Positions 2,071-55,395 are shown, numbered from the stretch's first letter. The stretch is 64,000 bases of DNA from Acidobacteriota bacterium (GCA_027314025.1 DAHVCP010000050.1:5753-69752), one strand, 5' to 3'. The notes: a model not told the origin generated them from the letters alone. Program-made: numbers and translations.

Positions 2071-2199
2071 GGTTGGCGCGACCCCGCGACAACCAACTTG
2101 GGAGGGGCTTACCACCGCCGGCGGGGAGCCCCTCTCGGCAACCCTGCCGCGCACCGCTACGGCCACTTCACGCCGCCGGAACTGCGCCCGGGCCGCCAT

Positions 2200-4805: not shown

Positions 4806-4960
4806 GTTCAAATGGCCAGAGTACAATACTCTTAGTCCGGGACGGCAAGCGTCGGAAATAGGGGCCAAACTTCTAGCTGGTCTGCATGACAAACTTGGGC
4901 TCACCAATGAGCAAGCTGCACCGTTACTTAACCGCTACATTCTAGCACTGGAGAAAGAAC

Positions 4961-5161: not shown

Positions 5162-5328
5162 CATCTCGCTTCGCGGCCAAAGGTAATGCCGCATATAGCT
5201 ATCGAGATGGTATCTTGGAGGGTGGGGCTAAGAGCGCCAGATCCTACGCTACACCAGTTTATCCTGAGCGGACTCGGGCGCGGGCGTGCAAGCCGGCGCC
5301 CGGATCCAGGAGGCATTGACGCAGCAGC

Positions 5329-6867
5329 TTAGGGGGCCTGGCGCGCCGCGGCGGAGTGCGCCACGGCTTGGCCGCTGGGCGGCGCGGGGCGAAGCCAACT
5401 GAAGGCGTAGCCGGTCAGGAAGGTGGTCACCGTTCCGCCGACTATAAACCATGTGAAGGGCAAACCGGAAAGCCCCAAGGCGACGGCGGCCGCGACGCCC
5501 ACGATCATGCCCACGATGGCGCCGAACTCATTGGCGCGGCGGGTCACCGTGCCCAGCAGGAACACGCCCAGCAGGGCGCTGAAGGGATAGGAGATGATCG
5601 CCAGGCCGGCCACCAAAACCGAACGCGAATCGCGGCTGGCGTAGGCCACGGCGGCCAGCACTACGGTCCAGCCCACCGTCGCCAGGCGGGACATCCACAA
5701 GTAATGTTTTTCCGACTGGCCGGGGTTCAGGTGCGGGCGGTAGAAATCCATGATGGTCGTGGAGCTGAGCGCGTTCAGCGCGGCGCTCAGGTTGGACATG
5801 GCGGCGGCGATGATGGCGGCGATCAGCAACCCCGCCAGGCCGACCGGGAAGAAGCGGGCGATATAGGAGGGATATAGGCGGTCGTATCTGCCGAACTGGC
5901 CGGCGGCGGGCAGGGCGTGGCTTTGATAGAAGACGTATAGCAGCACGCCGATGAACAGGAACAAGACGAATTGGAAAAAGATCACCACCCAACTGCTGAG
6001 CAGCGCCCATCGGCTCTCCCGTTCGCTTTTGGCCGAAAGCAGGCGCTGCACGATGAGCTGGTCGGTCCCGTCGGTGGCGGTGGTCAGGAACATGCCGCCG
6101 ATCAGCCCTGCCCAGAAGGTGAACGGCTGGGTCCAGGAAAACCGGAAATGCCAGATGCGGAATTTGTGCGCGGCGGCGGCGACGGCGGCGACATGCGCCC
6201 AACCCCCGGGAATGCCGCGCAGGATGAGGAAGAAGCTGAGTATGGCGCCGGCGACGTAGATGCAGATCTGGATGAAGTCCGTCCAGATGACCGCGCGCAT
6301 GCCGCCCTCGAAGGTGTAGACCAGGGTCAGGGCGGCGATGATGAGGATGATCTCCAGGTTGTTGAAGTGCCAGCGTAGGCCCAGGCGGGGCAGGGCATCC
6401 AGCACCACGCCGCCGACGATGGCCAGCGCCCACAGCCGGACGCCTTCGGCCATGGCCCGGCCGCCCAAAAAAATGGCGGCGCTCAGGCTTTTGAGCCGGG
6501 TGCCGAAGCGGCGCTGCATCAGTTCATAGGCGGTATACAGTTCGCCTTTGAAGTAGTGCGGCAGCAACAGGGCGGAGATGACGATCCGGCCCAGCAGATA
6601 GCCGAATACCAGTTGCAGGAACGCGAAGTCGCCGGTGTAGGCGATACCCGGCGTGCTGATGATGGTGAGGACGCTGGTTTCGCCGGCGACGATGGAAAGG
6701 GAAATGGCCCACCACGGCACCGCGCGGCCGCCGAGAAAATAATCCTTGAGGGTGGTCCCATGGCGGCGAAAGGAGATGCCGAACAGGGTGATGCCGACCA
6801 GGTAGGCGCCGATAATGGCGAGATCGAGAGGATGAAGTCCGGGATGCAGCCCCACGCCTTGAAGCAT
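5329..6867 (-). CDS. Sodium:solute symporter (SSF family)
   Basis: 512 aa and ~13 TM segments. SSF-like N-terminal region (YFLGGRAVPWWAISLSIVAGETSVLTIISTPG). Confidence 0.9.
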   Translation of the reverse strand: MLQGVGLHPGLHPLDLAIIGAYLVGITLFGISFRRHGTTLKDYFLGGRAVPWWAISLSIVAGETSVLTIISTPGIAYTGDFAFLQLVFGYLLGRIVISALLLPHYFKGELYTAYELMQRRFGTRLKSLSAAIFLGGRAMAEGVRLWALAIVGGVVLDALPRLGLRWHFNNLEIILIIAALTLVYTFEGGMRAVIWTDFIQICIYVAGAILSFFLILRGIPGGWAHVAAVAAAAHKFRIWHFRFSWTQPFTFWAGLIGGMFLTTATDGTDQLIVQRLLSAKSERESRWALLSSWVVIFFQFVLFLFIGVLLYVFYQSHALPAAGQFGRYDRLYPSYIARFFPVGLAGLLIAAIIAAAMSNLSAALNALSSTTIMDFYRPHLNPGQSEKHYLWMSRLATVGWTVVLAAVAYASRDSRSVLVAGLAIISYPFSALLGVFLLGTVTRRANEFGAIVGMIVGVAAAVALGLSGLPFTWFIVGGTVTTFLTGYAFSWLRPAPPSGQAVAHSAAARQAP

Positions 6868-6958
6868 AGAGAACTGGCCGGCCTAACGCCAGGCAAGGAT
6901 GCGCCCGCCGCCGGCCCTGGGCGCGCTCAGTTGGCCCCGGCGTGCGCCGCTGCTAGGT

Positions 6959-7192
6959 GCGCCCCGCTGGCCCTGGGCGCGCCGCCGGAGCTGGCTGTGG
7001 ACCGCCGGAGTCGGGTGCGCGCCGCCGGCCCGCAATCCGGTGCGGCCGTGGCCATCCGCGCCCCGCTGGCCCTGGGCGCGCCGCCGGAGCTGGCTGTGGA
7101 CCGCCGGAGTCGGGTGCGCGCCGCCGGCCCTGGGGGCGCGGGCCGCCGGCCCGCAATCCGGTGCGGACGTGGCCATCCGCGCCCGCAAAATA
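6959..7192. repeat. Tandem duplication, 109-bp period (second unit carries a ~20-bp insertion)
   Basis: GCGCCCCGCTGGCCCTGGGCGCGCCGCCGGAGCTGGCTGTGGACCGCCGGAGTCGGGTGCGCGCCGCCGGCC.. starts at 6959 and again at 7068. Confidence 0.85.
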
Positions 7193-8146: not shown

Positions 8147-9430
8147 ATGATGGATGGAATGCGGACTGCCGGTGGTCGTGAGTGGCTTCGAGGGGCGGCC
8201 TTGGCCACGGGGCTGTGCCTATTGGCCGTGGCGCCCGTCTGGGCGCAGGCGATCCCTCCCTGTCCGGCGCCGGGCACGCCGCTGGCCAAGCGCACCTGGA
8301 AGGGCGGGATGCCGGAGTATAACGCCTACATCGCCGCCTCCAAGCTGACGGGTACGGCGCAGGCGCAGGCGTTTGCCGCGTTTCTGCAAAAATATCCCCA
8401 GTCCGACTATCGCTTGCCGGCGTTGCAGCAGGAGATGGCTGGTTATGTGACGGCGAAGAATTACGCCGCGGCCGAGCGCACCGCGGAAGCGGTGCTGAAG
8501 GACCCGCACGCGCCGGCGGCGGTGCAGGCCGGAGCCTTCACCGTCATCGCCTATTACCTGCCCAACGCGGCGGCCAATTTGCCCGCTACCAGCGCGCGCA
8601 TGAGCCAGGATTTGGTGCGGATTGACTGGGCGGCGCACTGCGGCCAGCAAGCCCTAGCCGCCACCCAGGCGCCGGCGCAGAAAAAGGCGCAGGCCAGCTA
8701 TGTCTTCAACCGCGCCGCCGGCTTCGTGGCCCTCCAGCGGCATCACTACGCCGCCGCCTCCCGCCACTTCCAATCCGCGGTCGAATTCAATTCCAAGGAC
8801 GCGCAGTCGTATTACTGGCTGGGCATCGCCGAGCTGTACAAAAAGCCGGCGGACTTCAGCCGCGGGCTGTTCTACGTTGCCCGCGCCCAGGCCCTGGCGC
8901 CGAGCGCGACGACCATCAGCAGCTATTTGCAGAAGGCCTATACCAGCTATCACGGTTCCGCGCAGGGCTTGAACTCCCTGGAGTCCACCGCCCAGGGCAG
9001 CGCCGAGCCGCCCTCGGGCTTCAAGATCCAGTCGGCGCGCGACATCGCCATGGCGCAGTACCAGGCGGAGCTGCAGAAGGTGAACGCGGCCAATGCCGCG
9101 GCGCGGGCCAAGCTCTATCCGGCGGATACGTTCCGCGGCATCAAACAGCGCCTGATGAATCCGGCGACCCGCATGAGCGAGTGGAAGCAGGTGAAGGGGC
9201 AGACCTACCAGCTGCAGGGCGTGGTGGTATCGGCGACGCTGCGCACGGTGGATCTGTCGGTGGATCCCTTTGATCAGCAGGCGAAGCCGCCGAAGGTGGA
9301 TGTGCATTTGGTGCTGGCCGCGCCGCGGCGTGTGCATGCCGGCGCGCATGTGACCATCACCGGGACGGCGACGGCCTTCCACACCACGCCCAGCTTCCTG
9401 ATGGTGATGAACAAAGGCAAGGTCGGGTAA
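8147..9430 (+). CDS. Secreted hypothetical protein (possibly TPR-like helical)
   Basis: GGAGGA RBS before the ATG at 8147. Signal peptide ..GAALATGLCLLAVAPVWAQA. The body is helical and Ala/Gln-rich. Confidence 0.6.
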   Translation: MMDGMRTAGGREWLRGAALATGLCLLAVAPVWAQAIPPCPAPGTPLAKRTWKGGMPEYNAYIAASKLTGTAQAQAFAAFLQKYPQSDYRLPALQQEMAGYVTAKNYAAAERTAEAVLKDPHAPAAVQAGAFTVIAYYLPNAAANLPATSARMSQDLVRIDWAAHCGQQALAATQAPAQKKAQASYVFNRAAGFVALQRHHYAAASRHFQSAVEFNSKDAQSYYWLGIAELYKKPADFSRGLFYVARAQALAPSATTISSYLQKAYTSYHGSAQGLNSLESTAQGSAEPPSGFKIQSARDIAMAQYQAELQKVNAANAAARAKLYPADTFRGIKQRLMNPATRMSEWKQVKGQTYQLQGVVVSATLRTVDLSVDPFDQQAKPPKVDVHLVLAAPRRVHAGAHVTITGTATAFHTTPSFLMVMNKGKVG

Positions 9431-9485: not shown

Positions 9486-10337
9486 TCAGCGCAGCCAGGC
9501 TTCCAACGCGGTGGCGGCGTCGGTGGAATCGTCGCGGTATTTGACGATCACGGGCGCGTACAGGGACAGACCCCACTCTGGCCCGCGGCCGCGGCGGACC
9601 GCGCGGCCCCCGGGCACCACGACCGCGCCGGCGGGAACGCGGAGTCCCTCGCCGGCCGCGGCGCGATGCACCTCGCCCCGCGGCAGGTCATACAGCGGCG
9701 TGGATCGCGTCAGCACGACGCCGGCCGCCAGCACCGCGCCGGCGCCGATATGGGCGCCTTCATAGATGCCGCAGTTGCCACCGACCAGAACATCATCTTC
9801 CACGATGACCGGAGCGGCGTTGACCGGCTCCAAAACGCCGCCGATTTGCGCCGCCGCGCTGAGATGCACCCGCCGGCCGATTTGGGCGCAGGAGCCGACC
9901 AGGGCGTGGGAGTCAATCATGCTGCCCGCGTCCACATAGGCGCCGATATTGATGTAACACGGCGGCATGCAGATGACGCCTGGGGCCAGGTAGGCGCCGT
10001 CGCGCACGCTGCTGCCTCCAGGAACCACACGCACGCCGTCGCCCAGACGCCAGTCCCGCAATGGCAGCGTGTCCTTATCGCAGTAGCGCAGCGGCCCGGC
10101 GGGAGGATATTCCGTGAGCTGGCCGAGCCGGAAGCCGAGCAGAATACCCTGCTTCACCCAGGCGTTGGTGCGCCACCCCTGGGCGGCGGGCTCGGCGGCG
10201 CGGACCTCCCCGGCATTGAGCGCGGCGCGCAGTGCGGCGAAGGCGGCTAGCGCTTCGGCGCGCTGCGCGCCCAGGTCGGGGATGGCGGCGAGCCGCTCCA
10301 CGGCGGCGGCCAGGGCGGCGGTGTCGGCCGGACTCAT
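9486..10337 (-). CDS. dapD: 2,3,4,5-tetrahydropyridine-2,6-dicarboxylate N-succinyltransferase
   Basis: Matches E. coli DapD blocks: WVKQGILLGFR, YINIGAYVD.G.M.D, LVGSCAQIG..VHLS, IGGVLEP. ATGA overlap with the dapA stop. Confidence 0.9.
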   Translation of the reverse strand: MSPADTAALAAAVERLAAIPDLGAQRAEALAAFAALRAALNAGEVRAAEPAAQGWRTNAWVKQGILLGFRLGQLTEYPPAGPLRYCDKDTLPLRDWRLGDGVRVVPGGSSVRDGAYLAPGVICMPPCYINIGAYVDAGSMIDSHALVGSCAQIGRRVHLSAAAQIGGVLEPVNAAPVIVEDDVLVGGNCGIYEGAHIGAGAVLAAGVVLTRSTPLYDLPRGEVHRAAAGEGLRVPAGAVVVPGGRAVRRGRGPEWGLSLYAPVIVKYRDDSTDAATALEAWLR

Positions 10338-11266: not shown

Positions 11267-11952
11267 TGTCCTCCCGCGGCCATGCGGCCCAGTTCCGGGG
11301 CGATGGCGTCGAATGCATGCAACCCCCGCCGGCCCAGGATCCACCGCGCCGCCAGCAGCGCCCCTTCGGCGAAGCCGCGGCGGGAACGGGCGGTATGGGT
11401 CAGGGTAATCGTGTCGGCGGCGGCGTCGAAACCGACGGTATGGGTGCCGGGAATGGTCCCGGCGCGCACGCTGCTGGCGGGCACGTTGGGCCGGCCCGCC
11501 GCCGCCAAAATCGCTTGCAGCCGCTTCGCCGTGCCGGATGGCGCGTCCTGTTTGTGGCGGTGATGGGCCTCGGTGATGAAGGCGTCATAGCTGCCGGGCA
11601 CGGCTTCCGCCGCCGCCGCCACGGTGCGGAAAAACGCCTGCATTCCGAGGGAAAAATTGGCGCCATGGACCGCGCCCACCGGCGCTTCCGCCACCAGGCG
11701 CTCCGCCGCGGGCAACTGCTCCAGCCAGCCGGTGACGCCAATGATCATGGGAATGCCGCCCGCCATGGCCCGCTCCAAGTTGCCCATCACCGCGCCGGCC
11801 ACGCTGAAGTCAATCGCCACCAAGCCCGGCGTCCAGCCGGCGCGCCAGTCGGCCGCGCCGCGCACGATGTGCGCCACGCGGTGGCCCTGCTCCCGCGCCA
11901 CCTCCTCGACACAGCGATTCATTCGGCCGTAGCCGATCAAGATCAAGTCCAT
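11263..11952 (-). CDS. dapB: 4-hydroxy-tetrahydrodipicolinate reductase
   Basis: DapB signature EAHHRHKQDAPSGTA. Start trimmed to MDLILIGYGRMN (ATG at 11950-11952). Confidence 0.9.
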   Translation of the reverse strand: MDLILIGYGRMNRCVEEVAREQGHRVAHIVRGAADWRAGWTPGLVAIDFSVAGAVMGNLERAMAGGIPMIIGVTGWLEQLPAAERLVAEAPVGAVHGANFSLGMQAFFRTVAAAAEAVPGSYDAFITEAHHRHKQDAPSGTAKRLQAILAAAGRPNVPASSVRAGTIPGTHTVGFDAAADTITLTHTARSRRGFAEGALLAARWILGRRGLHAFDAIAPELGRMAAGGQ

Positions 11953-12039
11953 GCGATCAACGGCGATGGCGGTAGTGTACCCTGGCGCGCGGTGATCGCG
12001 CCGCCGCCAGGCTGCAACCGCCGGGCCGCGCCTGCGGGG

Positions 12040-12140
12040 CCCCGGTCCAGCCGGGCGCGGAAGCGGCGCTCCGCGCTGCGCCAATCAGAGCGGGACGCCC
12101 CGCCAGCGGCGGGGCTGGGGCCCGCGCCCACCGATGACGA
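12040..12140 (+). repeat. Dispersed GC-rich intergenic repeat, family 1
   Basis: Contains ..AAGCGGCGCTCCGCGCTGCGCCAATCAGAGCGGGACGCCCCGCCAGCGGCGGGGCTGGGGCCCGCGCCCACCGAT. Confidence 0.8.
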
Positions 12141-22469: not shown

Positions 22470-22728
22470 CGGCCCTGCCCGATGCGGCCGCCGCGCTTCC
22501 GGCCGTACCCGTTACCGGCGGTCGAAGCGGCCCCTGCCACTCGCGGGCGGCCGCGCCTTTTCCCCCGGGGCAAAGCAGGTGCGGGCAGGCCGCCGCATGA
22601 AAGAACGCCGCGGCTCGCCCCGCGCGCGTAAGCCAGGGCAACGCCCCGCGCCGATGAAAGCCGCGCTCCGCGCCAATTAAAGCGGGACGCCCCTCCGCAG
22701 GCGCGGCTGGGGCCCGCGCTGATCAACG
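22470..22728 (+). repeat. Dispersed GC-rich intergenic repeat, family 1 (long form)
   Basis: ..GCGCGCGTAAGCC..CGCGCTCCGCGCCAATTAAAGCGGGACGCCCCTCCGCAGGCGCGGCTGGGGCCCGCGCTGATCAA. The upstream arm resembles the arms at 34830 and 43700. Confidence 0.7.
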
Positions 22729-34829: not shown

Positions 34830-35072
34830 TGCTCTGCGCCACGCCCCGTTCGGGGGGCAGGTCCATCTCGCGGGGGCCGCGCCCTTTGCCCGTGGAGCAA
34901 ACCGGGCGCGGGAAGGCTGCGAAATCCCGCGGGGCGGCCCGCCCAAGGCAAGGGAAGCGGCGCGACCCCCGGCGACGCGTCGGCTGGGCCGGGGCGAACG
35001 GGGTCCCCGGCCCAGCCAGCCGCGCAAGCGGGACGCCCGGCGAAGCCGCGCTGAGGCCCGCGCCCATCAACG
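34830..35072 (+). repeat. Dispersed GC-rich intergenic repeat, family 1 (long form)
   Basis: ..GCCGCGCCCTTTGCCCGTGGAGCAAACCGGGCGCGGGAAGGCTGCGAAATCCCGCGG....GCGCAAGCGGGACGCCCGGCGAAGCCGCGCTGAGGCCCGCGCCCATCAA. Confidence 0.7.
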
Positions 35073-35148: not shown

Positions 35149-36987
35149 ATGCGGGCCTTCCCGCAATGTTTTTGGGGCCCGGGCCCCGCCGCGCGCCTGA
35201 AGCGCCCCAGCTCAAGCCCGGGCGCTGCGGTTTCCATCGCGCCGGAACTGCTGCGCACCGCCGCCTATTGGGCGATGCTTGGAGCCGCGGCGCTGGCCGC
35301 CAGCCCGCCGGGCGCGCATTTCAGCGTGCTGATCCGGGGCGGCGAAATCATTGATGGCAGCGGCGGGCGCGCGTATCGCGCCGACATCGGCATCCGCCAC
35401 GGACGGATCGCCGCGATCGGCAACCTCCAGAACGCCCGGGCTGCAACCGTCATTGATGCCCGGGGGTTGGTGGTGGCTCCAGGCTTCATTGACATGCTTT
35501 CCCATTCCGACGCCGCGTTGCTGCGCAACGGCGGCTGTTGCAGCAAGATCTATGAAGGCGTCACCACCGAGGTGCTGGGCGAGACCGCCTCGGTGGCTAC
35601 CGCGGGCCCCTTGGCCGGCGTCGCGCTGCGCCAACAGCGGCGCCTATTTGCCGCGCAAGGCGTATCCGTGAAATGGCGCCGGTTGCGCGGCTATTTTCAG
35701 CGCTTACAGCGCCAAGGCATTCGCCTCAACGTCGCCAGCTACGCTACTTTCGGCTGCATTCGGGAGTCGGTGATGGGCATGTCCAGTTCCGTGCCCACGC
35801 CGGCGCAGTTGGCGGCGGAGCAAGCGATGATGGCCCAAGCCATGCGCGATGGGGCGCTGGGCTTGGCCACGGCGTTCAGCTACGTGCCGGACATTTTTGC
35901 CCGCGATCCGGAAGTGATCGCGGTGGCCCGCGTGGCGGGGAGATATGGCGGCATCTACGCCACCCACGTCCGCGGACTGGGGAACATCAACGCCGGAGGC
36001 ATTCAAGAGGCGATTCGCATTGCCCGCGCCGCGCGCTTGCCGCTGCACATCTTTCACCTCCAGGTGGACCGCAATGACGGCCGGCAAGCTGCCAGCCGGG
36101 CTCTCGGTTGGATCGAGCGCGCCCGGCGCCAGGGCCTGCGCGTCACCGCCGATGCCTACCCCTACCGCGCCGCCGACAACTCCGCCGCTTCCATGGTGCC
36201 GGCGCGGTTTCGCGCCGGGGGCGCCTCCGCCCTGCTGCGCCGCCTCGCCAACCCGCGGCTCCGGGCGGAGATCGTGCGCGGCATCGCCGCCTCCGCCCGC
36301 CGCTTCGGCACGCGCCGCGATCCCGCCGGCTGGCGGCAGGAATATGTCATCTCGATTGCGCGGCCCAGCGACCGCCGCGATCTCGGCAAGAACTTCCAGA
36401 TCCTGGGCATGATGATGCGCCTGCCGCCGGCCCAGGCCGTGGCCCGGCTGTTGCGGCGCGAGGGCGGCAGCTTTGGCCGCATGTTTTTCAACAAGAGCGC
36501 CGCGTCGGTACGGCAGATCATCGCCGCGCCGTTCGTCAGCATTGGCGGCGACGCGATTGACGCCGACATGGCGGACAACGATGGCTATGCCGTCCCCCAT
36601 CCGCGCTACTTTGGCGCCGAAGCGCGGATTCTGGTGTGGGCGCGGGAGAAGCGATTTAGCCTGGCGGAGGCGGTGCACAAGATGACCGGCCTGGCGGCGC
36701 ATAGCTTGCAGCTGCGCGGCCGCGGGTTCATTCGCCGCGGCTACGCGGCGGACGTGGCGATCTTCAATCCCCGCACGGTGCAGGACCACGCCACCTACGC
36801 GCATCCCTGGCGCTACGCCAGCGGCGTCGCGGACGTTCTCGTCAACGGCGTGCCGGTGCTGCTGCATGGCCGCGTGACCGGCGCCCGGCCGGGCCAGGTG
36901 CTCCACGGTCCGGGCTGGCGCCATGGATGGCGAATGGGATCCCCCAGCCAGGCGCGTAAGCGGGACGCCCCGCCGCAGGCGGGCTAG
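35149..36987 (+). CDS. N-acyl-D-amino-acid deacylase (D-aminoacylase) family amidohydrolase; start uncertain
   Basis: LIRGGEIIDGSG..ADIGIRHGRIAAIG..VIDARGLVVAPGFIDMLSHSD and a C-terminal ..ADVAIFNP... The last 11 codons lie in a family-1 repeat. Confidence 0.8.
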   Translation: MRAFPQCFWGPGPAARLKRPSSSPGAAVSIAPELLRTAAYWAMLGAAALAASPPGAHFSVLIRGGEIIDGSGGRAYRADIGIRHGRIAAIGNLQNARAATVIDARGLVVAPGFIDMLSHSDAALLRNGGCCSKIYEGVTTEVLGETASVATAGPLAGVALRQQRRLFAAQGVSVKWRRLRGYFQRLQRQGIRLNVASYATFGCIRESVMGMSSSVPTPAQLAAEQAMMAQAMRDGALGLATAFSYVPDIFARDPEVIAVARVAGRYGGIYATHVRGLGNINAGGIQEAIRIARAARLPLHIFHLQVDRNDGRQAASRALGWIERARRQGLRVTADAYPYRAADNSAASMVPARFRAGGASALLRRLANPRLRAEIVRGIAASARRFGTRRDPAGWRQEYVISIARPSDRRDLGKNFQILGMMMRLPPAQAVARLLRREGGSFGRMFFNKSAASVRQIIAAPFVSIGGDAIDADMADNDGYAVPHPRYFGAEARILVWAREKRFSLAEAVHKMTGLAAHSLQLRGRGFIRRGYAADVAIFNPRTVQDHATYAHPWRYASGVADVLVNGVPVLLHGRVTGARPGQVLHGPGWRHGWRMGSPSQARKRDAPPQAG

Positions 36988-37012
36988 GGCCCGCGCCTAT
37001 CATTGAGCCAGG
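36950..37012 (+). repeat. Dispersed repeat, family 1 (short form), overlapping the stop codons of both convergent genes
   Basis: GGCGCGTAAGCGGGACGCCCCGCCGCAGGCGGGCTAGGGCCCGCGCCTATCATTGAG. Confidence 0.8.
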
Positions 37013-38690
37013 GCCAGCCCACCGCCGGCAGGCAGGGAACGCCCCGGGGCAGGAGCACGGCCCAGAGTTGCGGCGGCGCCGGCATGGTGGCGCAATGGTG
37101 GAAGCGCCGCAGCAGATAGACTTCCAGCGGGCGCGCGCCGGAGAAGGAAGTGACCGGCATGCCGGGGAAGTTCTTTGCCTCCCATTGGATCGCGCCTAAG
37201 TCGAACAGCACCGCCACGGGCGGTGTGGCGGCTAATTCGGCCCGCGCGGCCGCGAACTGCCGGGGTGAGTTCTGTCCCCATTGCAGCCAGGCGAAGCGGG
37301 TGGGATTGGCGCGCCCGGACAGATAGTAGTAATCCGGCAGGTAGGGGTAAACGAAGATCGGTCCGGGTGGCAGGCGCCGCAGGTAGGCCAGCACGGGATC
37401 GGGAACCGCCATGCGCAGCCGGCCGTGCGCGGTGGCCACGGTGGCGGGAAATCCGCCAAGGGCGCGGGCCCAGTAGTGCACGCCGGCCACGGTAAAAAAC
37501 AACAGCACGTACACGGCGATGACCGGCGCCGCCGCGCGGGCCGCCGGGCCCGGGTTGCGGCGGCCCGTGATCCAGGCCAAGGTGAGGACGAAAATGGGCG
37601 TCAAATAGGCGATGTGGCCGTAATCCTGCCGCGTCAGCACCACGCTCAACAGCAAGCCGGCCATGACCGTTCCAGCCAATAGGTAATAGCCCCGAGCCAG
37701 CCCGGAGGGGCGATGGCGCCGCAGTCCCAGCCACAGCGCCGCCGCCACGCCCACGCCGATCCAAGGCAGCAGCAGGATCGCCAGATGGGGACTGAACCAC
37801 AGCCAGGCCTCCGCCTTCGCCAGCCAGGAACCGGTGGACGGGATATGCGCGTGGAAAAACATATATCCGTAGGGCAGCGAATTGGCGGCGAGATAATGCC
37901 GCAGCGGCCAGAGGACATCCGCGATCATTGCGCCCAGCGCGCCTTGGCTGGCGAAGTACGCCGCGGTGGCCAGCGCCGGCAGGGCAAATCCCGCCGCGAT
38001 TGCCCATCCTTGCCGCGGCCGCAGTTGCGCACGCCACGGTGGCCGGCGCACCAGCCACACGGCCGCCGCCGCCAGCCCCAGCACCAGCCCCGCGCCCTTG
38101 GATTGCTCATCCAGGCAGGTCAGGGCGGCGAAAAACCCGACCGCGCCGGCGCTGATCCAATGCGGCCGCTCCAGCCAGAGCACCGCCGCGTACAGCGCCA
38201 GGTAGGCGAGCAGCGTGCTGTCCCAGTTGTGCAGGGTGATGAACTCGAACGGCAGCGTCAGCAACGCCATGGCGTAGGCGGCCAGCAGCGCTGCCCAGCG
38301 CGCCGCCACCCGCCGCGCCAGCAGGTAGGTGAGGACGGCCATCGCCGCGCCTTCCAGCAGGAGGACGACGCGCCCGGTGAATACCGAGTCGCCGAACAGC
38401 CGGAACAGCAGCGCCAGGCCGTAATAGGAACCCGGCGTATAAAAGCTGAAAAAATCCCGGTACAACACCTGCCCATGCAGGATGCGCTGTGCGCCTTGCA
38501 GCAGGATGCCTTCGTCGGGCCAGAAAGCCTCGCAGCGGAGGAACGGTATATATGCGAGGGCGGTGCCCGCAAAGACCACCGCCGCCCAAAGCCATTCCGT
38601 CCACGAACGCTCGGGGCGAAATAGCCCGGCTTCAGGGGGCGCCGGCCGGGCGGCGGCAGGGGCTGCTGCGGTGGGCGAGGTCGGGTGCAT
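36984..38690 (-). CDS. Polytopic membrane glycosyltransferase, GT39/ArnT-like (PMT_2-type)
   Basis: 568 aa and more than 10 TM segments. The N-terminal loop ..FWPDEGILLQGAQRILHGQVLYRDFFSFYTPG.. is typical of ArnT-like lipid-linked sugar transferases. Confidence 0.6.
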   Translation of the reverse strand: MHPTSPTAAAPAAARPAPPEAGLFRPERSWTEWLWAAVVFAGTALAYIPFLRCEAFWPDEGILLQGAQRILHGQVLYRDFFSFYTPGSYYGLALLFRLFGDSVFTGRVVLLLEGAAMAVLTYLLARRVAARWAALLAAYAMALLTLPFEFITLHNWDSTLLAYLALYAAVLWLERPHWISAGAVGFFAALTCLDEQSKGAGLVLGLAAAAVWLVRRPPWRAQLRPRQGWAIAAGFALPALATAAYFASQGALGAMIADVLWPLRHYLAANSLPYGYMFFHAHIPSTGSWLAKAEAWLWFSPHLAILLLPWIGVGVAAALWLGLRRHRPSGLARGYYLLAGTVMAGLLLSVVLTRQDYGHIAYLTPIFVLTLAWITGRRNPGPAARAAAPVIAVYVLLFFTVAGVHYWARALGGFPATVATAHGRLRMAVPDPVLAYLRRLPPGPIFVYPYLPDYYYLSGRANPTRFAWLQWGQNSPRQFAAARAELAATPPVAVLFDLGAIQWEAKNFPGMPVTSFSGARPLEVYLLRRFHHCATMPAPPQLWAVLLPRGVPCLPAVGWPWLNDRRGP

Positions 38691-38962
38691 GAGTGCGGGC
38701 GGCCCGCGGGCCGCGGCAAACCGGGGTGGATGGGCCTACAGCCCACGCTAGCATTCACCGCCGCTGGTTGCGCCTGCGCGGCGATGGTAGAGCCGTTTCC
38801 TGGCCGCGCGGGCAGGCATGGCTTGGGTACCGGCGCCTGGCGCCCGCCGGCCGCGGCAACTTGGAGCGGCCCAAAGCGCCGGCGGGCATCCGTTGCCGGC
38901 CGGCGCAACCCGGGGTGGGGAGCCCGGGGTGGGGAGCCAGCCACAGCGCCGCGACTCGGCCT

Positions 38963-39089
38963 CCAAAACTGAGCGGTTGAGCCGCCGACGAGGCCGGGGC
39001 GGCGTGCGGGCGCGCGCAGGCGCCGGGTCGCTCGCGGCTGGCCGCGGACAGGAGGACCGGCGAGCCAGAGGCCGGGTATTGGTCTAATT
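38963..39089 (+). repeat. Left copy of a ~127-bp direct repeat bracketing the KaiC-like cassette
   Basis: CCAAAACTGAGCGGTTGAGCCGCCGACGAGGCCGGGGCGGCGTGCGGGCGCGCGCAGGCGCCGGGTCGCTCGCGGCTGGCCGCGGACAGGAGGACCGGCGAGCCAGAGGCCGGGTATTGGTCTAATT aligns base by base with 42363-42490. Confidence 0.85.
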
Positions 39090-39183
39090 GGGAATCCCCA
39101 CCACTCCGCCACCCACCTGCCCTCTATTTATGCGAAGGGCCTGACCGCAACCGCTTCTCCCGCCCGGCAACCTCCAGGACCCA

Positions 39184-40698
39184 TTAGCTTGCATCCACCG
39201 TCCCTGGGTGCTCCGAGGGCCCGTCCGGCGATGCGGGTCGGTCCGAGTGAATGGGGATGCCGCTGATCAGGCCCTGATAGTGGATGAGGCGCTTGCCGAG
39301 AATCACCACGCCCTTAGACGTGATCTCATACTCGCGAATATCCTTGGCGTGATTGCCGCCCCGCATCTTGATCACCACGAGAATCTTGCGAAGCTGGCCA
39401 TCGATGGACACGTACCGGAGCCGGACGATGTCGTCGGCGAGAAAAGAAATTGAGTAGGTGCTGAACGGGAACTCAGTAAACGACTCGTCCACTTCCACCG
39501 TGCTCAGAATCGTCACCCCAATTCCCGTCAAAGCGAAGATCATGCGATAGAGCGATTCGCGAAAGTCGGCACGGAAGCCTGGCGACAGAGCCATTTCAAA
39601 GCCAGCCAGCGAATCAATGACCAGACGCTTGGCGCCAATCTTCTGCACGGCGTCGAGGATCGAGTGCATGGTCTCATCCACGGAGAGATCCAGCGGACGC
39701 AAATAGAGGATCTCGAGCTTTCCTTCCTTTTGCGGCGTTTCCAGATCCAACCCTAGGTTGGCGGCCCGCTCCGCGTAGGCCTGCGGACGCTCCTCAAAGA
39801 CGGCCACGATTCCCGACTCTCCTTGGCGTAGGCCCTCGGCAATGAATTGGGTTGCCAGGACCGATTTCCCGGTTCCCGAAGGCCCGGCTACGAGGACGCT
39901 GTCGCCTTCGCGAACGCCGCCACCGAGCATGTTGTCCAACTCGGGAACCCCGAAGCAAAGACGCCTATGGCTGGGCGGATTCCTCACGCGTCCAGTCAGC
40001 CCGAACGTGCGCGAAAACGCCTGCACGCCGGCCTCGGTAATTCGGAAGGTGTGCAGTCCCGGCACGGAATTCTGGCCGCGCAGTTTGATAATCTGCAGCT
40101 TTCGTACGATTGAGTTCCGCTCCGGCGTCTGACGCAACCAGAACAGCCCATCGGCGACGGTGAATATGGGATTGTCGTGCAGCTCGTCCTCGGCATATTC
40201 GCCGATCAGAAACGTTGTCGCCTGCCAGCTGGCCAAGAACAGCGATAACCGTTGAATGAACGATTGCAGGCTGATATCACTCAACGGCTTCCGCGCCATG
40301 GTTCGGAAGGAGTCGACGACTACAAATGCGGGATTGAACCGTTCAACCTCCGCGGTAATCCCATTCAAGACCGCGCCCAGGTCACCATCTAAGACCACCT
40401 GGCTCAGATTGAGGAAGCGAATGGTCCCCGGCAGCTTGGCTGGATCGAAAAAGGTGTACTGTTGCTGGTATCGCAGCATCTTGATGGCAGACTCGCCGAG
40501 GACGGTGAAGTAGAGCGCGGGCTGCGCCGGAGTGGCGTTGGCGAAAACAAATTGATGCGCCAGCGTCGTCTTGCCGCTGCCTGGTTCTCCCGCGATGATG
40601 TTGAAGGAAAATTCTGGGAGACCGCCCCCCACAATCTCGTCAAGCCCCGGAACGCCGGTAGATAATTTGCGGATCGTTACTTTGTCTTGGGTGCTCAT
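39184..40698 (-). CDS. KaiC-like double RecA-domain ATPase
   Basis: Two KaiC/RecA-like domains with Walker A motifs GEPGSGKTTLA and GPSGTGKSVLA, Walker B-like VVVDSF and LVIDSL, and the C-terminal KMRGGNHAKDIREYEI block. Start MSTQDK; ATGA overlap with the upstream ORF. Confidence 0.85.
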   Translation of the reverse strand: MSTQDKVTIRKLSTGVPGLDEIVGGGLPEFSFNIIAGEPGSGKTTLAHQFVFANATPAQPALYFTVLGESAIKMLRYQQQYTFFDPAKLPGTIRFLNLSQVVLDGDLGAVLNGITAEVERFNPAFVVVDSFRTMARKPLSDISLQSFIQRLSLFLASWQATTFLIGEYAEDELHDNPIFTVADGLFWLRQTPERNSIVRKLQIIKLRGQNSVPGLHTFRITEAGVQAFSRTFGLTGRVRNPPSHRRLCFGVPELDNMLGGGVREGDSVLVAGPSGTGKSVLATQFIAEGLRQGESGIVAVFEERPQAYAERAANLGLDLETPQKEGKLEILYLRPLDLSVDETMHSILDAVQKIGAKRLVIDSLAGFEMALSPGFRADFRESLYRMIFALTGIGVTILSTVEVDESFTEFPFSTYSISFLADDIVRLRYVSIDGQLRKILVVIKMRGGNHAKDIREYEITSKGVVILGKRLIHYQGLISGIPIHSDRPASPDGPSEHPGTVDAS

Positions 40699-41150
40699 GC
40701 TTTTCTCGCGTGCTCGGAATGGTAATCGTCGAGGGCTGCCCCTGGCCACGCAACCCGCAGCAGGCTCAAGGTCAAGGCGTCGCCAAGAAATGTAACAAGC
40801 AGGCAGAGTAGGCGAGCGATGAGGACGCGTCCTCCCTCGTCCGCCGGGGACTCGGCAGCCTGATCGTTGTCATTCTTCATTGGATGGCCATACTCGCCCA
40901 GACCCTGCAGTGACCCGTCTCCCGCAATCCGGGCCGCGCTAAGGCCGGGAGCTTCCGTTTGGGCCAGCGTCAAGGCGCGGGCAGCGAACGCTTGAAAACC
41001 CGCGATGCCCGCAAACTCGCTCACGCCCTGGCGTAGCTTCTCGTAGACGCGAAGCGCTGCAGGCTCCGAGGGCGCGGGGAGCGGGTTAGCGGCGGCTTCA
41101 TAAATGAGAAGACGACGGGCTAAATCTCGCATTCCCGGGGCGACCGTCAT
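40695..41150 (-). CDS. Hypothetical helical protein, paralog A of the KaiC-associated pair
   Basis: 151 aa, collinear with the N-terminal ~135 aa of the 231-aa ORF upstream (RDLARxxxxxEA..RVYExLR..GFQAxAARALxLA..LIAxLLxLxxTFLGxAxTLxL). Its stop overlaps the kaiC-like start. Confidence 0.65.
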   Translation of the reverse strand: MTVAPGMRDLARRLLIYEAAANPLPAPSEPAALRVYEKLRQGVSEFAGIAGFQAFAARALTLAQTEAPGLSAARIAGDGSLQGLGEYGHPMKNDNDQAAESPADEGGRVLIARLLCLLVTFLGDALTLSLLRVAWPGAALDDYHSEHARKA

Positions 41151-41297
41151 GTTGACACGTGGTGCAAGGCAGATGCGCTCATTTGCCGTTATCGGCCTCG
41201 TAGGTGGATCGGGGCGGCGCGTCCAGCCTGCCGCAATCGCCCGCGACCGTGAGGTGCGCCGCCTCCAGAGCCGCTCTGGGTACCGTGCGGGCGGAAC

Positions 41298-41993
41298 TCA
41301 ATGCACATAGCCATCGGCGGGCGGGAGCAGTGCGTCTTGCAGGGGGCCGCCAGCCTTGCTTTTGATGAGCGTGAAAACATCCAGCACCGTGGCAATGCTG
41401 TGAATGTTTCCCGCAACACTCAAGAGTCCCTCCTCCATCCCGGGGTACCGGGCCGCGAGGGCTGCAATATGCTCACCCACGCTCCTCAGCTGGTCAATGT
41501 CCACAAGAAGGTCGCCGAAAGCCGTAGCCGTTGCTGGTCCATCGGCAGCTGCCCCGACGACCGCGTCCGCTGCGGTGGTGGCCGGTTCTGCCGGGATGTC
41601 AGCCTGAAGGTGCAAATCGTCAATCAAATGCAGGGTTGTCGCCTCGCCAAGGAAGGTGAGAAACAGCCCGAGCAGCTGTGCAATCAGAGCGATGCCGGCC
41701 TCGCGATACGCATCCGCATCCGTCGGGGACTCAATTTCTTCCAGACCGCGCAAGGTGCCATTTGCCGCAACCTGGGCGGCGTTGAGGCGGGGTGATTGCC
41801 GCTTCGCTAGCGCCAAGGCACGAGCCGCGATCGCCTGAAAGCCGTCAGCACCCATGGTTGAGCCAAGCTGCCGACGCAGCGCCTCATAGACGCGCACCGT
41901 TGCGGGTTGGGCGCGCAGCGTGGTCGTACCGGCATCGGCCTCGCAAACAACGAAGCTGCGGGCCAAATCGCGCGTTTTGTCGGGTGGCGGCAT
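41298..41993 (-). CDS. Hypothetical helical protein, paralog B (with ~95-aa C-terminal extension)
   Basis: 231 aa with an AGGAG RBS before the ATG. Homologous to the 151-aa ORF. No family recognised. Confidence 0.7.
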   Translation of the reverse strand: MPPPDKTRDLARSFVVCEADAGTTTLRAQPATVRVYEALRRQLGSTMGADGFQAIAARALALAKRQSPRLNAAQVAANGTLRGLEEIESPTDADAYREAGIALIAQLLGLFLTFLGEATTLHLIDDLHLQADIPAEPATTAADAVVGAAADGPATATAFGDLLVDIDQLRSVGEHIAALAARYPGMEEGLLSVAGNIHSIATVLDVFTLIKSKAGGPLQDALLPPADGYVH

Positions 41994-42106
41994 CGCTCCT
42001 ATTCCCTGCTTTCACGCCGCGGCTCGCTTTGCACCTGAAGCGTTTACCGCAATGGCACTCCCATGCCGGCAGCTCCGGCAGCCAGACCCTCGAAATATGC
42101 CATTGC

Positions 42107-42135
42107 AATCTATCTTGGCATCAGCCAGGAGTCAA
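42107..42135 (-). promoter_or_regulatory. Sigma70-like promoter candidate for the KaiC-like cassette
   Basis: Minus strand TTGACT (42135-42130), 17-bp spacer, TAGATT (42112-42107). Immediately followed by a 9-bp inverted repeat (42098-42106 / 42049-42057). Confidence 0.35.
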
Positions 42136-42162
42136 TGGCTGAGCAAAAGTGAACCTCCGGCC

Positions 42163-42330
42163 GCAGGGGTCGCGCCGTTTGCACCTAGGCCAAGTCGGCG
42201 CGAAAAGGCCGCGACATTGCCTGCGCGCCCACGGCGCGCGGAAGAAGGCCGCGGCTCGCCTGAGCCAGCGCAGCGGCGCGGCCCCCAGCGACGCGTAAGC
42301 GGGGCAGCGCCCCGCGCCCGTCAATAGCGG
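42163..42330 (+). repeat. Dispersed repeat, family 1 (degenerate long form)
   Basis: Starts GGGGTCGCGCCGTTTGCACCTAGGC (compare 47524 GGGTCGCGCCGTTTGCACCTGGGC). Ends ..GACGCGTAAGCGGGGCAGCGCCCCGCGCCCGTCAATAGC. Confidence 0.65.
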
Positions 42331-42362
42331 TGCCGAGGCCCTCGTCCCCGGCCCCGCAGCGG

Positions 42363-42490
42363 CCAAAAATGAGCGGCTGTGAGCCGCCGGCGAGGCCGAG
42401 GCGGCGTGCGGGTGTGCGCAGGCGCCGGGTCGCTCGCGGCTGGCCGCGGGCAGGATGACCGCCAAGCCAGGGGCTGGGAATTGGTCTAAT
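42363..42490 (+). repeat. Right copy of the ~127-bp direct repeat bracketing the KaiC-like cassette
   Basis: CCAAAAATGAGCGGCTGTGAGCCGCCGGCGAGGCCGAGGCGGCGTGCGGGTGTGCGCAGGCGCCGGGTCGCTCGCGGCTGGCCGCGGGCAGGATGACCGCCAAGCCAGGGGCTGGGAATTGGTCTAAT. Ends 6 nt before the OYE start codon. Confidence 0.85.
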
Positions 42491-42496
42491 AGCTAC

Positions 42497-43588
42497 ATGG
42501 ACCATCTTTTCGCTCCCTGGCGCCAGCGCGGGCTGGATCTGAAGAACCGCATCGTGGTTTCGCCGATGTGTGAATATTCCAGCCAAGACGGCTTCGCCAA
42601 CGACTGGCACTTCGTGCATTTGGGCAGCCGCGGGATCGGCGGCGCGGGTTTGGTGTTTACGGAGGCGTCGGCGGTGACGCCCGAAGGCCGGATCAGTCCC
42701 GACGATTTGGGCATTTGGGACGACCGCCATATCGCCCCGCTGCGGCGCATCGTGGACTTCCTGCACCAGCACGGCGCCCGTGCCGGCATGCAACTGGCGC
42801 ATGCCGGCCGCAAAGGCAGCACCTTCGCGCCGGCCCGTGGCGAGGGCGCGGTGCCGCTGGAGCAGGGCGGCTGGACGCCAGTGGCCCCCAGCGCGTTACG
42901 CTTCGCGCCCAACTATCCCCTGCCGCGGGAGCTGGATGCCGCGGGCATCGCCGCCGTGGCCGCCGCCTTCGCCGCCGCCGCCCGCCGGGCGCTGGCCGCA
43001 GGCTTCGATGTGGTCGAAATTCACGCCGCTCACGGCTATCTGCTGCATGAGTTTTTGTCGCCGCTCAGCAATCAGCGCCAGGATGGTTACGGCGGCAGCC
43101 TGGAAAATCGCGGCCGCATCGTGGCCGAAGTGATCGCTGCCGTCCGCGCGGTTTGGCCGCAGGAGCGGCCGCTGTGGCTGCGCATCTCCGCCACCGATTG
43201 GGCGCCCGGGGGCTGGGACGTCGAACAGTCCGTGGCGCTGGTGAGCCGCTTGGCGCCGTTGGGCGTGGACCTGGTGGACTGCTCTTCCGGCGGCAACGTG
43301 GCGCAGGCGCAGATCCCGGTCGGCCCGGGATATCAGACCGCCTTCGCCGCCCGCATTCGCCGCGAGACCGGCACGGCCACTGGCGCGGTGGGCATGATCG
43401 TCGCGCCTGCCCAGGCCGACGCCATCATTCGCAGCGGCCAAGCCGACGTGGTGTTGCTGGCGCGGGAAATGCTGCGCGACCCCTATTGGCCGCTGCGCGC
43501 GGCGCGCGAACTGGGGCAGACGGCGGCGTGGCCGGTGCAATATCTGCGCGCCGCGCCCGCCGGCAGCCCCGCCGCCCAGCCGGTGTGA
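42497..43588 (+). CDS. NADH:flavin oxidoreductase, Old Yellow Enzyme family (YqjM/NamA type)
   Basis: NRIVVSPMCEYS, HFVHLGSRG, HAAHGYLLHEFLSPLSNQRQDGYGGS, ADVVLLAREMLRDPYW. Confidence 0.9.
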   Translation: MDHLFAPWRQRGLDLKNRIVVSPMCEYSSQDGFANDWHFVHLGSRGIGGAGLVFTEASAVTPEGRISPDDLGIWDDRHIAPLRRIVDFLHQHGARAGMQLAHAGRKGSTFAPARGEGAVPLEQGGWTPVAPSALRFAPNYPLPRELDAAGIAAVAAAFAAAARRALAAGFDVVEIHAAHGYLLHEFLSPLSNQRQDGYGGSLENRGRIVAEVIAAVRAVWPQERPLWLRISATDWAPGGWDVEQSVALVSRLAPLGVDLVDCSSGGNVAQAQIPVGPGYQTAFAARIRRETGTATGAVGMIVAPAQADAIIRSGQADVVLLAREMLRDPYWPLRAARELGQTAAWPVQYLRAAPAGSPAAQPV

Positions 43589-43594: not shown

Positions 43595-43810
43595 GGAGCG
43601 TTTACTGGCGCGGGCCCCAGCCCCGCCTGCGGCGGAGCGCCCCGCTTTGATGGGCGCGGGGCGTCGCCGCCCCGCTTAGGCGCTGCCGGGGGCTGCGCCG
43701 CCTCCTTTGCCCGGGGCAGGCCGCGGCGTGCCTGTGCGCGCCGCGCGGGCGCTGGAATTTCCGCGGCCTTCCCGCGACCGCTTTGCGCGTCGGGGCAAAA
43801 GCCGGGCCTG
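43595..43810 (-). repeat. Dispersed repeat, family 1 (long form, inverted orientation)
   Basis: The reverse complement reads ..CGCCTAAGCGGGGCGGCGACGCCCCGCGCCCATCAAAGCGGGGCGCTCCGCCGCAGGCGGGGCTGGGGCCCGCGCCAGTAAA. Confidence 0.7.
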
Positions 43811-47494: not shown

Positions 47495-47523
47495 CGTTCT
47501 TGGATTGTAGCCTCTCTGCCGCG

Positions 47524-47690
47524 AGGGTCGCGCCGTTTGCACCTGGGCAATGCCGGCGGGAAACGGCCGCACAATTCCGCGGGACGGCCCGCCCCCGGCC
47601 CTGCCTGGCGCGTAAGCGGCGCTCCGCGCCGCGCCAATTCAAGCGGGACGCCCCGCCGCAGGCGGGGCTGGGCCCGCGCCCATCAATTTT
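47524..47690 (+). repeat. Dispersed repeat, family 1 (near-consensus long form)
   Basis: GGGTCGCGCCGTTTGCACCTGGGC....GGCGCGTAAGCGGCGCTCCGCGCCGCGCCAATTCAAGCGGGACGCCCCGCCGCAGGCGGGGCTGGGCCCGCGCCCATCAAT. Confidence 0.8.
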
Positions 47691-50124: not shown

Positions 50125-50240
50125 ATGGCCGGTCGCGGGGCCCCCGGCCCAGCCTGGCGCGTAAGCGGCGCTCCGCGCCGCGCCAATTAAGGCGGGATGC
50201 CCCGCCGCAGCCGCGCTGCGGCCTGCGCCAGTCAATCGGA
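50125..50240 (+). repeat. Dispersed repeat, family 1
   Basis: ..GGCGCGTAAGCGGCGCTCCGCGCCGCGCCAATTAAGGCGGGATGCCCCGCCGCAGCCGCGCTGCGGCCTGCGCCAGTCAAT. Confidence 0.8.
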
Positions 50241-55099: not shown

Positions 55100-55395
55100 C
55101 TACTCGCGTGCGGTTGGATGAGAGCCGCTGAATGCAAGTTGGCCGCTCGCCGGGCCGCGCCTCTCGCCCGGGCAAAGCGGGAGCGGAAAGGCCGCGATGC
55201 TCCCGGCGACCCCTTGGCGCGCGGGGGCCGGGCGGCCCGCCGAAGCAAGCAGTGCGGCGCGGCCCCCAGCGATGCGCCGACTGGGCTGGGGCGAACGGGG
55301 CCCCGCCCCAGCCGGCGCGCAAGCGGCGCACCGCGCCGCGCCGATCCAAGCGGGATGCCCCGCCTTGACGGGGCTGGGGCCCGCGCCATTCAATG
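55100..55395 (+). repeat. Dispersed repeat, family 1 (long form)
   Basis: ..GGCGCGCAAGCGGCGCACCGCGCCGCGCCGATCCAAGCGGGATGCCCCGCCTTGACGGGGCTGGGGCCCGCGCCATTCAAT. Confidence 0.75.

Follow-up and report, generated by a model that had tools for sequence, protein, structure and literature searches.

How did a small operon for a KaiC-like ATPase come to lie between two housekeeping-type genes of a soil acidobacterium, and why is it bracketed by two nearly identical 127-bp direct repeats? The operon lies in a 64,000-nucleotide stretch of an Acidobacteriota genome of the order Terriglobales (GCA_027314025.1, DAHVCP010000050.1:5753-69752), which we call the window and whose positions are counted from its first letter. 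Its three genes, open reading frame A (ORF-A), ORF-B, and the KaiC-like gene, separate a gene for a GT39-like glycosyltransferase from a gene for an NADH:flavin oxidoreductase of the Old Yellow Enzyme (OYE) family. An earlier note on this DNA had proposed that the two neighbors once faced each other across a single copy of the repeat, that the cassette was inserted later, and that the insertion duplicated or recombined the repeat by way of attachment (att)-like sites or repeat-mediated capture. The comparison set consisted of 33 fetched related loci (designated by L numbers), the 64-kb window itself, JGI metagenome contigs, and IMG/VR. The inserted DNA, which we call the islet, is an old integrase-less insertion in the short divergent spacer between the GT39-like and OYE genes, at the core promoter of the OYE gene.

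Two copies of a 127-bp unit flank the cassette

The left and right copies of the unit form a direct repeat and agree at 114 of 126 aligned positions; the sole indel between them, 2 nt (CT), is present in the right copy only. BLAST of the 2.5-kb flanks of the cassette gave 88.3% identity over 128 columns (E = 1e-42). The almost base-for-base match described in the earlier note thus holds after formal alignment, as do its limits for the right copy, whereas the last matching base of the left copy is 39088 and not 39089. The right copy ends at 42490, leaving 6 nt before the OYE start codon (ATG at 42497), and the left copy lies upstream of the divergent GT39-like gene, 272 nt from its start (38690, minus strand); both positions agree with those first described.

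When the entire 64 kb was searched for repeats, the pair emerged as family D5, and no third copy of the unit was found. A 24-nt pattern taken from the beginning of the unit, allowing up to 3 mismatches, had one match in the window versus zero expected, and a sensitive BLAST (word size 7) of the window and all 33 loci returned nothing beyond this pair and its orthologues. Cores of 29 and 25 nt, the best conserved parts of the unit, had 0 exact matches in JGI metagenome contigs and 0 in IMG/VR. The absence of a third copy from the window, noted at the outset, is confirmed by the repeat search, the 24-nt pattern, and the sensitive BLAST.

A dispersed repeat family has many copies at unrelated intergenic sites. 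The unit did not show this pattern in the window, the loci, or the collections searched, and the possibility raised in the earlier note that it is one more scattered, high-copy repeat was not borne out. A dispersed repeat was therefore rejected as the identity of the unit, and we give almost no credence to the explanation that it belongs to a set of intergenic repeats, of the repetitive extragenic palindrome (REP) or miniature inverted-repeat transposable element (MITE) kind, that flanks the cassette by chance. GC-rich intergenic repeats (families D1 to D4 and D6) abound in the window, and the end of the unit that begins with CCAAAA and contains a hairpin has a partial extra copy in the JGI contig L031, both of which would fit such a membership. 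Against it stand the mere two copies in 64 kb, the lack of others in the loci and collections, and the homology of the unit to a single-copy spacer at empty sites (see below), where it is fixed in register with the OYE start codon.

The partial copy in L031 (JGI 3300054705, positions 630 to 671) is 85.7% identical over 42 nt to window positions 38946 to 38985. With ~50 nt in all, it takes in the end of spacer F (the native spacer outside the left copy) together with the first ~35 nt of the unit; it lies ~60 nt inside the right copy, within ~95 nt of extra repeat material. Judging by this partial copy, the CCAAAA/hairpin end acts as a minor element that duplicates locally, and the unit has a slightly blurred outer edge.

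The same two-copy arrangement is found in the metagenome-assembled genome (MAG) GCA_027314945.1, in the ENA assembly L005, in the MAG L009 (~94.6% DNA identity), and in L031. Since it recurs in independent assemblies, the arrangement is not a chimeric assembly or another assembly artifact. Short-read Logan contigs and locus L021 break within the copies, as a two-copy sequence predicts.

Related lineages carry the locus without the cassette

A search for empty sites, which the earlier note had recommended, was run and found the GT39-like and OYE genes without the cassette in at least three related Terriglobales lineages (L010/L013/L014/L015, L016/L017, and L018), whose OYE identity to the window is 84%, 79%, and 77%. 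The gene order at these sites is Amidohydro_3, GT39-like, OYE, plsY, and gpsA, so that the GT39-like gene is syntenic with OYE there as well. The GT39-like and OYE genes are divergent and 90 to 201 nt apart, with neither cassette nor tRNA gene. Because these empty sites have conserved synteny, the cassette is an insertion in the lineage of the window, and the ancestral state was a GT39-like gene beside OYE with a single spacer, into which the cassette was inserted later. These empty sites lend support to the history first proposed, a single repeat between the two genes followed by insertion of the cassette.

The opposite history, in which the cassette is ancestral here and the empty sites of the relatives are secondary deletions by recombination between the repeats, is in our judgment very improbable. 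Recombination of 127-bp direct repeats would leave exactly one copy, and no empty site was found among the closest strains, as this history would have it. However, every more distant lineage sampled is empty, at all three depths of OYE identity; the cassette carries a tRNA-Ser fragment and the flank of another locus; and the module is present at unrelated sites in other genomes.

The unit resembles the native OYE promoter spacer

The body of the unit is collinear with the empty-site spacer of L014 (Smith-Waterman score of 28 versus 18.4 ± 2.7 for shuffled sequences; 3 of 500 shuffles were as good). The 20 nt at the end of the unit (TTGGTCTAAT) are kept before OYE in L009, L021, L014, and L016/L017, always with 6 nt between them and the ATG, and the conserved form of this end is TTGGTyTAAT-N6-ATG. 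The terminal TGGTCTAAT fits the extended -10 consensus TGnTAtAAT and is retained in the right copy of every strain compared. Given this fit, the distance of just 6 nt to the ATG, and the lack of a Shine-Dalgarno sequence, the OYE transcript is putatively leaderless from TGGTCTAAT. We conclude that the 127-bp unit is the native promoter-proximal spacer of OYE and not an att site, an RNA gene, or an independent repeat family. The earlier proposal of att-like sites is not upheld, since the unit has the features neither of an att site nor of a mobile repeat and resembles the native OYE spacer; the att-type scar at this locus is the tRNA-Ser fragment described below.

Comparison of the unit with Rfam gave no match at the gathering threshold or at E <= 1, and folding of both strands gave minimum free energy z scores of -0.3 to -1.8, which are not significant. 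An RNA gene, a riboswitch, and a small RNA were ruled out by these two results. A decayed tRNA was also rejected as the identity of the unit, since a 10-mer match to the D-loop of tRNA-Ser was insignificant (27 of 500 shuffles were as good).

The outer junctions of the two copies, between spacer F and the left copy and between the right copy and OYE, are native, and both inner junctions are novel, one of them at a tRNA T-loop. The right copy is probably the original, which would still drive OYE, and the left copy is probably a relic, to which the tRNA-derived end of the islet is attached.

When the minus strand is read, the unit's CCAAAA end (42372 to 42388 in the right copy; 38963 to 38986 in the left copy) is a terminator-like hairpin followed by 4 to 5 T's. 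The hairpin of the left copy is downstream of kaiC and could end the operon transcript.

A regulatory explanation for the two copies takes the unit to be a cis-regulatory module, a plus-strand promoter combined with a minus-strand hairpin-plus-T-run terminator or insulator, whose second copy was kept by selection. The left copy would then terminate the kaiC operon or serve the GT39-like gene as promoter and insulator, with the right copy acting as the promoter of OYE. This would suit the extended -10-like box conserved upstream of OYE, with which the unit ends, and the location of the terminator-like hairpin downstream of kaiC in the left copy. We nevertheless consider it improbable, because the left copy is decaying, with its -10 end lost in L009 and the whole copy lost in L012, because neither strand has a significant fold and Rfam has no match at the thresholds given above, and because it accounts for the retention of a copy and not for its origin.

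The duplication is older than the divergence of the strains

The left copies (window, L005, and L009) and the right copies (window, L009, and L031) form two groups with six fixed differences, and no gene conversion between the copies was detectable in this left/right comparison. Because the six differences are common to the strains, the duplication is older than the strain divergence. The divergence between the copies is 9.5 to 12%. In L009 the left copy lacks the -10 end, and in L012 (YP3.bin22) the remnant of an IS3-family transposase has taken the place of the entire left copy, the tRNA fragment, and the last ~8 codons of kaiC, which is a later, strain-specific event. The remnant in L012 (positions 1534 to 1925 of contig JAKAUF010000383.1) consists of the C-terminal ~70 residues of the transposase (rve_3) and an insertion sequence (IS) end beginning with TG, located in the 3' end of kaiC. 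Its breakpoint on the GT39 side is 3 to 4 nt inside the outer edge of the left copy, a coincidence of ~2 to 3%.

The islet ends in a fragment of a tRNA-Ser(GGA) gene

The inserted DNA extends from ~39089 to 42159 (~3.07 kb) and contains a promoter, ORF-A, ORF-B, and the gene for the KaiC-like ATPase. This extent follows from the limits of homology on the ORF-A side and from a tRNA fragment on the kaiC side. The fragment is the last 21 nt of tRNA-Ser(GGA), (C/G)GAATCCCCACCACTCCGCCA; it is kept in the window, L005, and L009 and is joined via TG to the TAAT end of the left copy. Its match to the tRNA had a Smith-Waterman score of 47 versus 18 ± 3 for shuffled sequences, and 0 of 500 shuffles were as good. 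The 3' flank of the tRNA gene, between the fragment and the kaiC stop codon, travelled along with the islet. We conclude that the islet is probably derived from a locus associated with tRNA-Ser(GGA) and that its kaiC-side end was broken in the T-loop. The only tRNA gene of the window is a tRNA-Arg gene (2200 to 2276). No intact tRNA or tmRNA gene, the feature expected at one end of an Islander-type island, lies beside the cassette in the window, and the 21-nt T-loop-to-CCA fragment has no partner tRNA gene (tDNA) there. In L009 (~9520 to 9560) the spacer between kaiC and the tRNA fragment contains a ~17-nt tandem duplication (GGCCCTTCGCATA..., twice), which is also present in L005 and absent in the window.

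On the ORF-A side, the homology of the window to L030 and L033 ends at ~42158 to 42160, just upstream of the module promoter. The 204 nt between this point and the right copy (42160 to 42362) contain two host repeat units, at 42160 to 42212 and 42259 to 42323. Elsewhere in the window this segment is matched at least 7 times, among others by an inverted partner at 43639 to 43799, as a dispersed repeat would be. We rejected it as the far arm of the islet, since it has no similarity to L033 or L030 (502 of 1,000 and 644 of 1,000 shuffles were as good) and consists of host repeats instead. At the same spot, L031 has ~95 nt of extra repeat material that is absent in the window and L009, indicating that the host repeats beside the right copy are still turning over.

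Several claims of the earlier note concern the interval between the copies. It does contain the KaiC-like cassette, but it also contains the tRNA-Ser 3' fragment with its flank, and the host repeat units number two and not one. The statement that no integrase or transposase is present between the copies proved correct, as scans of the ORFs with family libraries found none.

The module is present at unrelated loci

Other Terriglobales carry the module as a discrete unit in three further contexts, all unrelated to the site in the window: between a baeRF-like gene and a GH15 gene (L022 to L025), between csbD and a VIT1 gene (L026 to L029), and between the histidine operon and an rsmD-like gene (L030 and L033). 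The nearest relative is L033, with 95% identity of the KaiC protein and 90.4% DNA identity over window positions 42160 to 39186, where homology ends on both sides. L033 has an intact tRNA-Ser(GGA) gene (11577 to 11666, ARAGORN) on the opposite strand, 74 nt past the kaiC stop codon. On the ORF-A side of the same module, at 8367 to 8385, is a degenerate 19-nt tRNA 3' end (GGCGGAAGGACGGGGATTC, 16 of 19 positions matching) in the same orientation as the tRNA. This displaced fragment breaks at the T-loop position after ...GGGGATTC, as the window fragment does, and 9 of 1,000 shuffles were as good. An intact tDNA together with a displaced 3' fragment is an accepted mark of integrase-made island ends, and crossover classes in the T-loop and T-stem are standard for integration into tRNA genes (PMC4383910; bioRxiv 10.1101/2020.11.02.365908).

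In L022/L023 the module adjoins the 3' end of tRNA-Met. Direct repeats around the module were found in neither L022/L023 nor L026/L027, and no integrase was found in the ORFs between the repeats of the window or among the gene calls around the module in L033, L022, and L026. Since no recombinase is on board, any mobilization would act in trans. In the csbD/VIT1 context (L026/L028/L029, positions 1322 to 5428), genes for IS481- and IS110-family transposases are located 2.5 to 6.5 kb upstream of ORF-A, which makes this locus a mobile neighborhood as well.

These contexts raise a broader idea, which we regard as rather unlikely. The ORF-A/ORF-B/KaiC operon could be the cargo of widespread integrase-less islets of the Terriglobales that are moved in trans by integrases specific for the tRNA T-loop and land at tRNA 3' ends (Ser-GGA and Met-CAT) and sometimes at promoter pseudo-sites. 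If true, this would explain why the KaiC-like protein is 81 to 95% identical across lineages (thousands of database entries) while the neighboring housekeeping proteins are 70 to 84% identical, and the two paralogous partners would be the input or output components of a new KaiC-based signaling module.

A possible route to the duplication

A conservative integrase reaction accounts for the junction of the left copy with the tRNA fragment and leaves the duplication of 127 bp unexplained. Our best guess for the duplication is a chain of integrase insertion, imprecise excision, and Campbell-type integration. An integrase acting in trans would have inserted the islet at the -10 box of OYE, used as a secondary site, producing the joint between the unit and the tRNA fragment. 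Imprecise excision would then have yielded a circle with the unit and the islet. This circle could have entered an unoccupied chromosome by Campbell-type homologous recombination within the unit, giving the order unit-islet-unit, in which OYE keeps its promoter. The host repeats beside the right copy would have been inserted afterwards. On this route, the att joint would mark one boundary of the repeat, and the point of imprecise excision would mark the other. Elements that were excised aberrantly, lambda dgal and F-prime among them, are known to reenter the chromosome by homology. We put the probability of the whole chain at roughly 0.5.

Several observations weigh against this chain. No intermediate, either a primary integrant without the right copy or a circle, was found among the loci, and no att-type joint survives on the OYE side. 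The resemblance of the target (TTGGTCTAAT) to the T-loop region (GGGGTTCGAAT) is weak, and the joint comprises 13 nt, against the 7 expected from a simple aligned crossover. In L033 the displaced fragment is only modestly significant (P of ~0.01), its L030 orthologue alone is not significant, and a displaced tRNA-Met fragment was not found in L022. Neither the window nor L033 nor any other context of the module yielded an integrase, and among strains with more than 90% identity to the window none with an empty site was found. Finally, the divergence of the copies is equally compatible with identity at insertion and with an origin in two lineages, so that it cannot separate the Campbell-type route from a duplication in one step.

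Such a one-step event would be an illegitimate, homology-facilitated, or template-switch insertion of a linear or circular copy of the islet that duplicated the target at once, through staggered breaks 127 nt apart or through recopying; the tRNA fragment would then be a mere record of the donor cut. We hold this to be possible but doubtful. It accords with the native appearance of the outer junctions of both copies and the novelty of both inner ones, with the lack of terminal inverted repeats, transposase, and integrase, and with a copy divergence compatible with identical copies at insertion. On the other side, no known bacterial recombinase leaves a 127-bp target duplication, and the donor would have broken exactly in the T-loop, in the same place as the degenerate fragment of L033, which by random breakage has a chance of ~5% per site.

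A transposable element with target-site duplication was rejected as the source of the repeats. No terminal inverted repeats were found at the ends of the insert (39089 and 42159), there is no transposase, and 127 bp is far beyond the known range. Target-site duplications made by transposons and IS elements are 2 to 15 bp long, and we know of no bacterial recombinase or transposase that makes 127-bp target duplications.

Features of the locus and of the module

The coordinates of the features discussed here are collected in Table 1.

Table 1. Features of the locus in the window, ordered by position
Feature	Position	Strand	Remarks
GT39-like (PMT_2) glycosyltransferase gene	36984..38690	-	Left native neighbor; Pfam PMT_2, E = 3.8e-8
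Spacer F	38691..38962		Native, GT39 proximal; GT39-proximal part aligns with L010 empty-site spacer
Left copy of the 127-bp unit	38963..39088	+	Duplicated, decaying copy of the OYE promoter spacer
tRNA-Ser(GGA) 3' fragment	39091..39111	+	T-loop 3' half, T-stem, acceptor 3' strand, and CCA; probable att-type islet end; aligns with intact L033 gene
tRNA 3' flank	39112..39183		Spacer to kaiC stop; part near the tRNA (AATAGAGGGCAGGTGGG) conserved with L033
KaiC-like double-domain ATPase gene	39184..40698	-	504 aa; Pfam KaiC (PF06745), two domains, E = 1e-72
ORF-B	40695..41150	-	151 aa; paralogue of the ORF-A N-terminal part; stop overlaps kaiC ATG (ATGA)
ORF-A	41298..41993	-	231 aa; first gene of the module; no family match
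Promoter-like site of the module	42107..42135	-	Sigma-70-like, TTGACT-17-TAGATT; consensus scan; within block conserved with L030, L031, and L033
Host dispersed intergenic repeats	42160..42362		Families D6 and D4; between islet edge and right copy
Right copy of the 127-bp unit	42363..42490	+	Native OYE upstream spacer in original place
Putative extended -10 box, TGGTCTAAT	42482..42490	+	Fits TGnTAtAAT; 6 nt before OYE ATG, without Shine-Dalgarno sequence
OYE family NADH:flavin oxidoreductase gene	42497..43588	+	Right native neighbor; Pfam Oxidored_FMN, E = 6e-69

The minus strand between the copies holds one operon, in the order ORF-A, ORF-B, and KaiC-like ATPase, with its own promoter. ORF-B and ORF-A are 43% identical in BLASTP (E = 1e-28), and ORF-B is conserved within the module at other loci. 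More than 2,000 homologues of ORF-A were found, of ~230 aa and 65 to 91% identity, none of which is annotated. Neither ORF had a match in the Pfam, NCBIfam, or PADLOC libraries, and a profile search of PDB sequences with ORF-A was empty. The AlphaFold2 model of ORF-A is all helical, and its mean predicted local distance difference test (pLDDT) score of 54 is too poor for a fold search. An ORF-A profile found nothing in IMG/VR, the collection searched for viral or proviral carriage. Back-translated ORF-A patterns had no match in JGI contigs; this reflects a limit of the tool, since a protein search shows many JGI homologues.

The KaiC-like ATPase scored 244.7 bits against NF006799 (cutoff, 408) and 161.7 bits against TIGR02655 (cutoff, 546), and its best PDB matches by sequence are KaiC hexamers. 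No KaiA or KaiB gene is adjacent, and ORF-A and ORF-B have no KaiA or KaiB domains. With scores below both equivalog cutoffs and neighbors other than kaiA and kaiB, the protein does not have the marks of a circadian KaiC of the KaiABC type. An assignment to antiphage defense was also rejected, as the PADLOC search was empty for ORF-A and ORF-B and the ATPase gave only weak matches at the P-loop level.

The GC content of the module is 61%, versus 69 to 72%, and it is lower than that of the flanks in every genomic context. Because this holds in every context, low GC content is a property of the module and gives no date for the transfer; as proof of recent transfer it was rejected.

Spacer F has no second copy anywhere in the window. 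Just outside the left copy (38911 to 38938), it contains a 14-nt tandem duplication (CCCGGGGTGGGGAG, twice), which is a single copy in L009. OYE is flanked by an inverted composite GC-rich repeat (42160 to 42362 and 43639 to 43799, ~73% identity over ~160 nt) that recurs at 47518 to 47570, 55171 to 55276, 34934 to 34989, 22606 to 22652, and elsewhere. The window also contains GC-rich intergenic repeats that resemble REPs and bacterial interspersed mosaic elements (BIMEs). These form families D1 to D3, with lengths of 56 to 97 nt and identities of 64 to 87%, and have copies at 12038 to 12134, 22664 to 22719, 36960 to 37027, 47591 to 47687, 50140 to 50236, and 55298 to 55394; related repeats are present in L033. 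Three 43-nt units rich in GCGGAGCGG are located near the start of the window (75 to 204). At 6946 to 7184, two 86-nt copies with 93% identity, 99 nt apart, are interleaved with a 51-nt pair, forming local tandem or near-tandem repeats.

Significance and comparison with known systems

The locus is a well-resolved case of a known and fairly ordinary kind of event, in which an integrase-less islet appears to have landed at a secondary site and is flanked by long repeats of host DNA. As a clean, datable example, it shows how a small operon without a recombinase moves from site to site in soil Acidobacteria, which are poorly studied. The full set of an att-type scar, a donor-type locus, and both empty and occupied sites is available, which is rare for uncultured lineages. 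The case also illustrates that a cargo can be flanked by long direct repeats that are neither att sites nor mobile repeats; here they are a duplicated host promoter segment, which lets OYE keep its promoter. Of the whole locus, the strongly conserved module of ORF-A, ORF-B, and the KaiC-like gene most deserves to be followed and is a candidate for functional study.

Like the product of transposon or IS insertion, the islet is inserted DNA flanked by direct repeats of target sequence. The repeats here are 127 bp long, however, and are accompanied by neither terminal inverted repeats nor a transposase. Campbell-type integration gives the same product as that seen in the window, a cargo between long direct repeats of chromosomal DNA; the difference is that no intermediate was observed here and the copies are too diverged to show a hybrid structure. 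With the cyanobacterial KaiABC oscillator, the window ATPase shares two tandem KaiC/RecA-like domains, and its nearest structural relatives by sequence are KaiC hexamers. It differs in its scores below the equivalog cutoffs and in its lack of an adjacent KaiA or KaiB; its partners are instead two paralogues outside known families.

The resemblance to Islander-type tRNA islands is seen at both loci. The L033 module is located between an intact tRNA-Ser(GGA) gene and a degenerate 3' fragment in the same orientation, and the window islet ends in a T-loop-to-CCA part whose T-loop breakpoint is a standard crossover position of tyrosine integrases, the enzymes that make such islands. Unlike such islands, the module has no integrase in or beside it, and the window has no intact tRNA partner. 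Moreover, the islet of the window has entered a promoter spacer and not a tDNA, and the direct repeats beside it consist of 127 bp of the target itself and not of a tRNA segment.

A cis-mobilizable element (CIME) is an element without integration and transfer genes that has attL and attR (PMC6323972). Similarly, the module is small and cargo only, has att-type tRNA bounds in L033, carries no recombination or transfer genes, and would need an integrase in trans. CIMEs have intact attL and attR sites and demonstrated or inferred mobilization by a cognate integrative and conjugative element (ICE), whereas L033 has one degenerate att-like end, the window has one att-type end only, and no cognate ICE or integrase is known. 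Given the degenerate att-like end and the lack of a known cognate recombinase, the module is at most a candidate CIME. Since no integrase accompanies the module anywhere, the closest concept among known systems is a cargo-only, att-bounded element of the CIME type.

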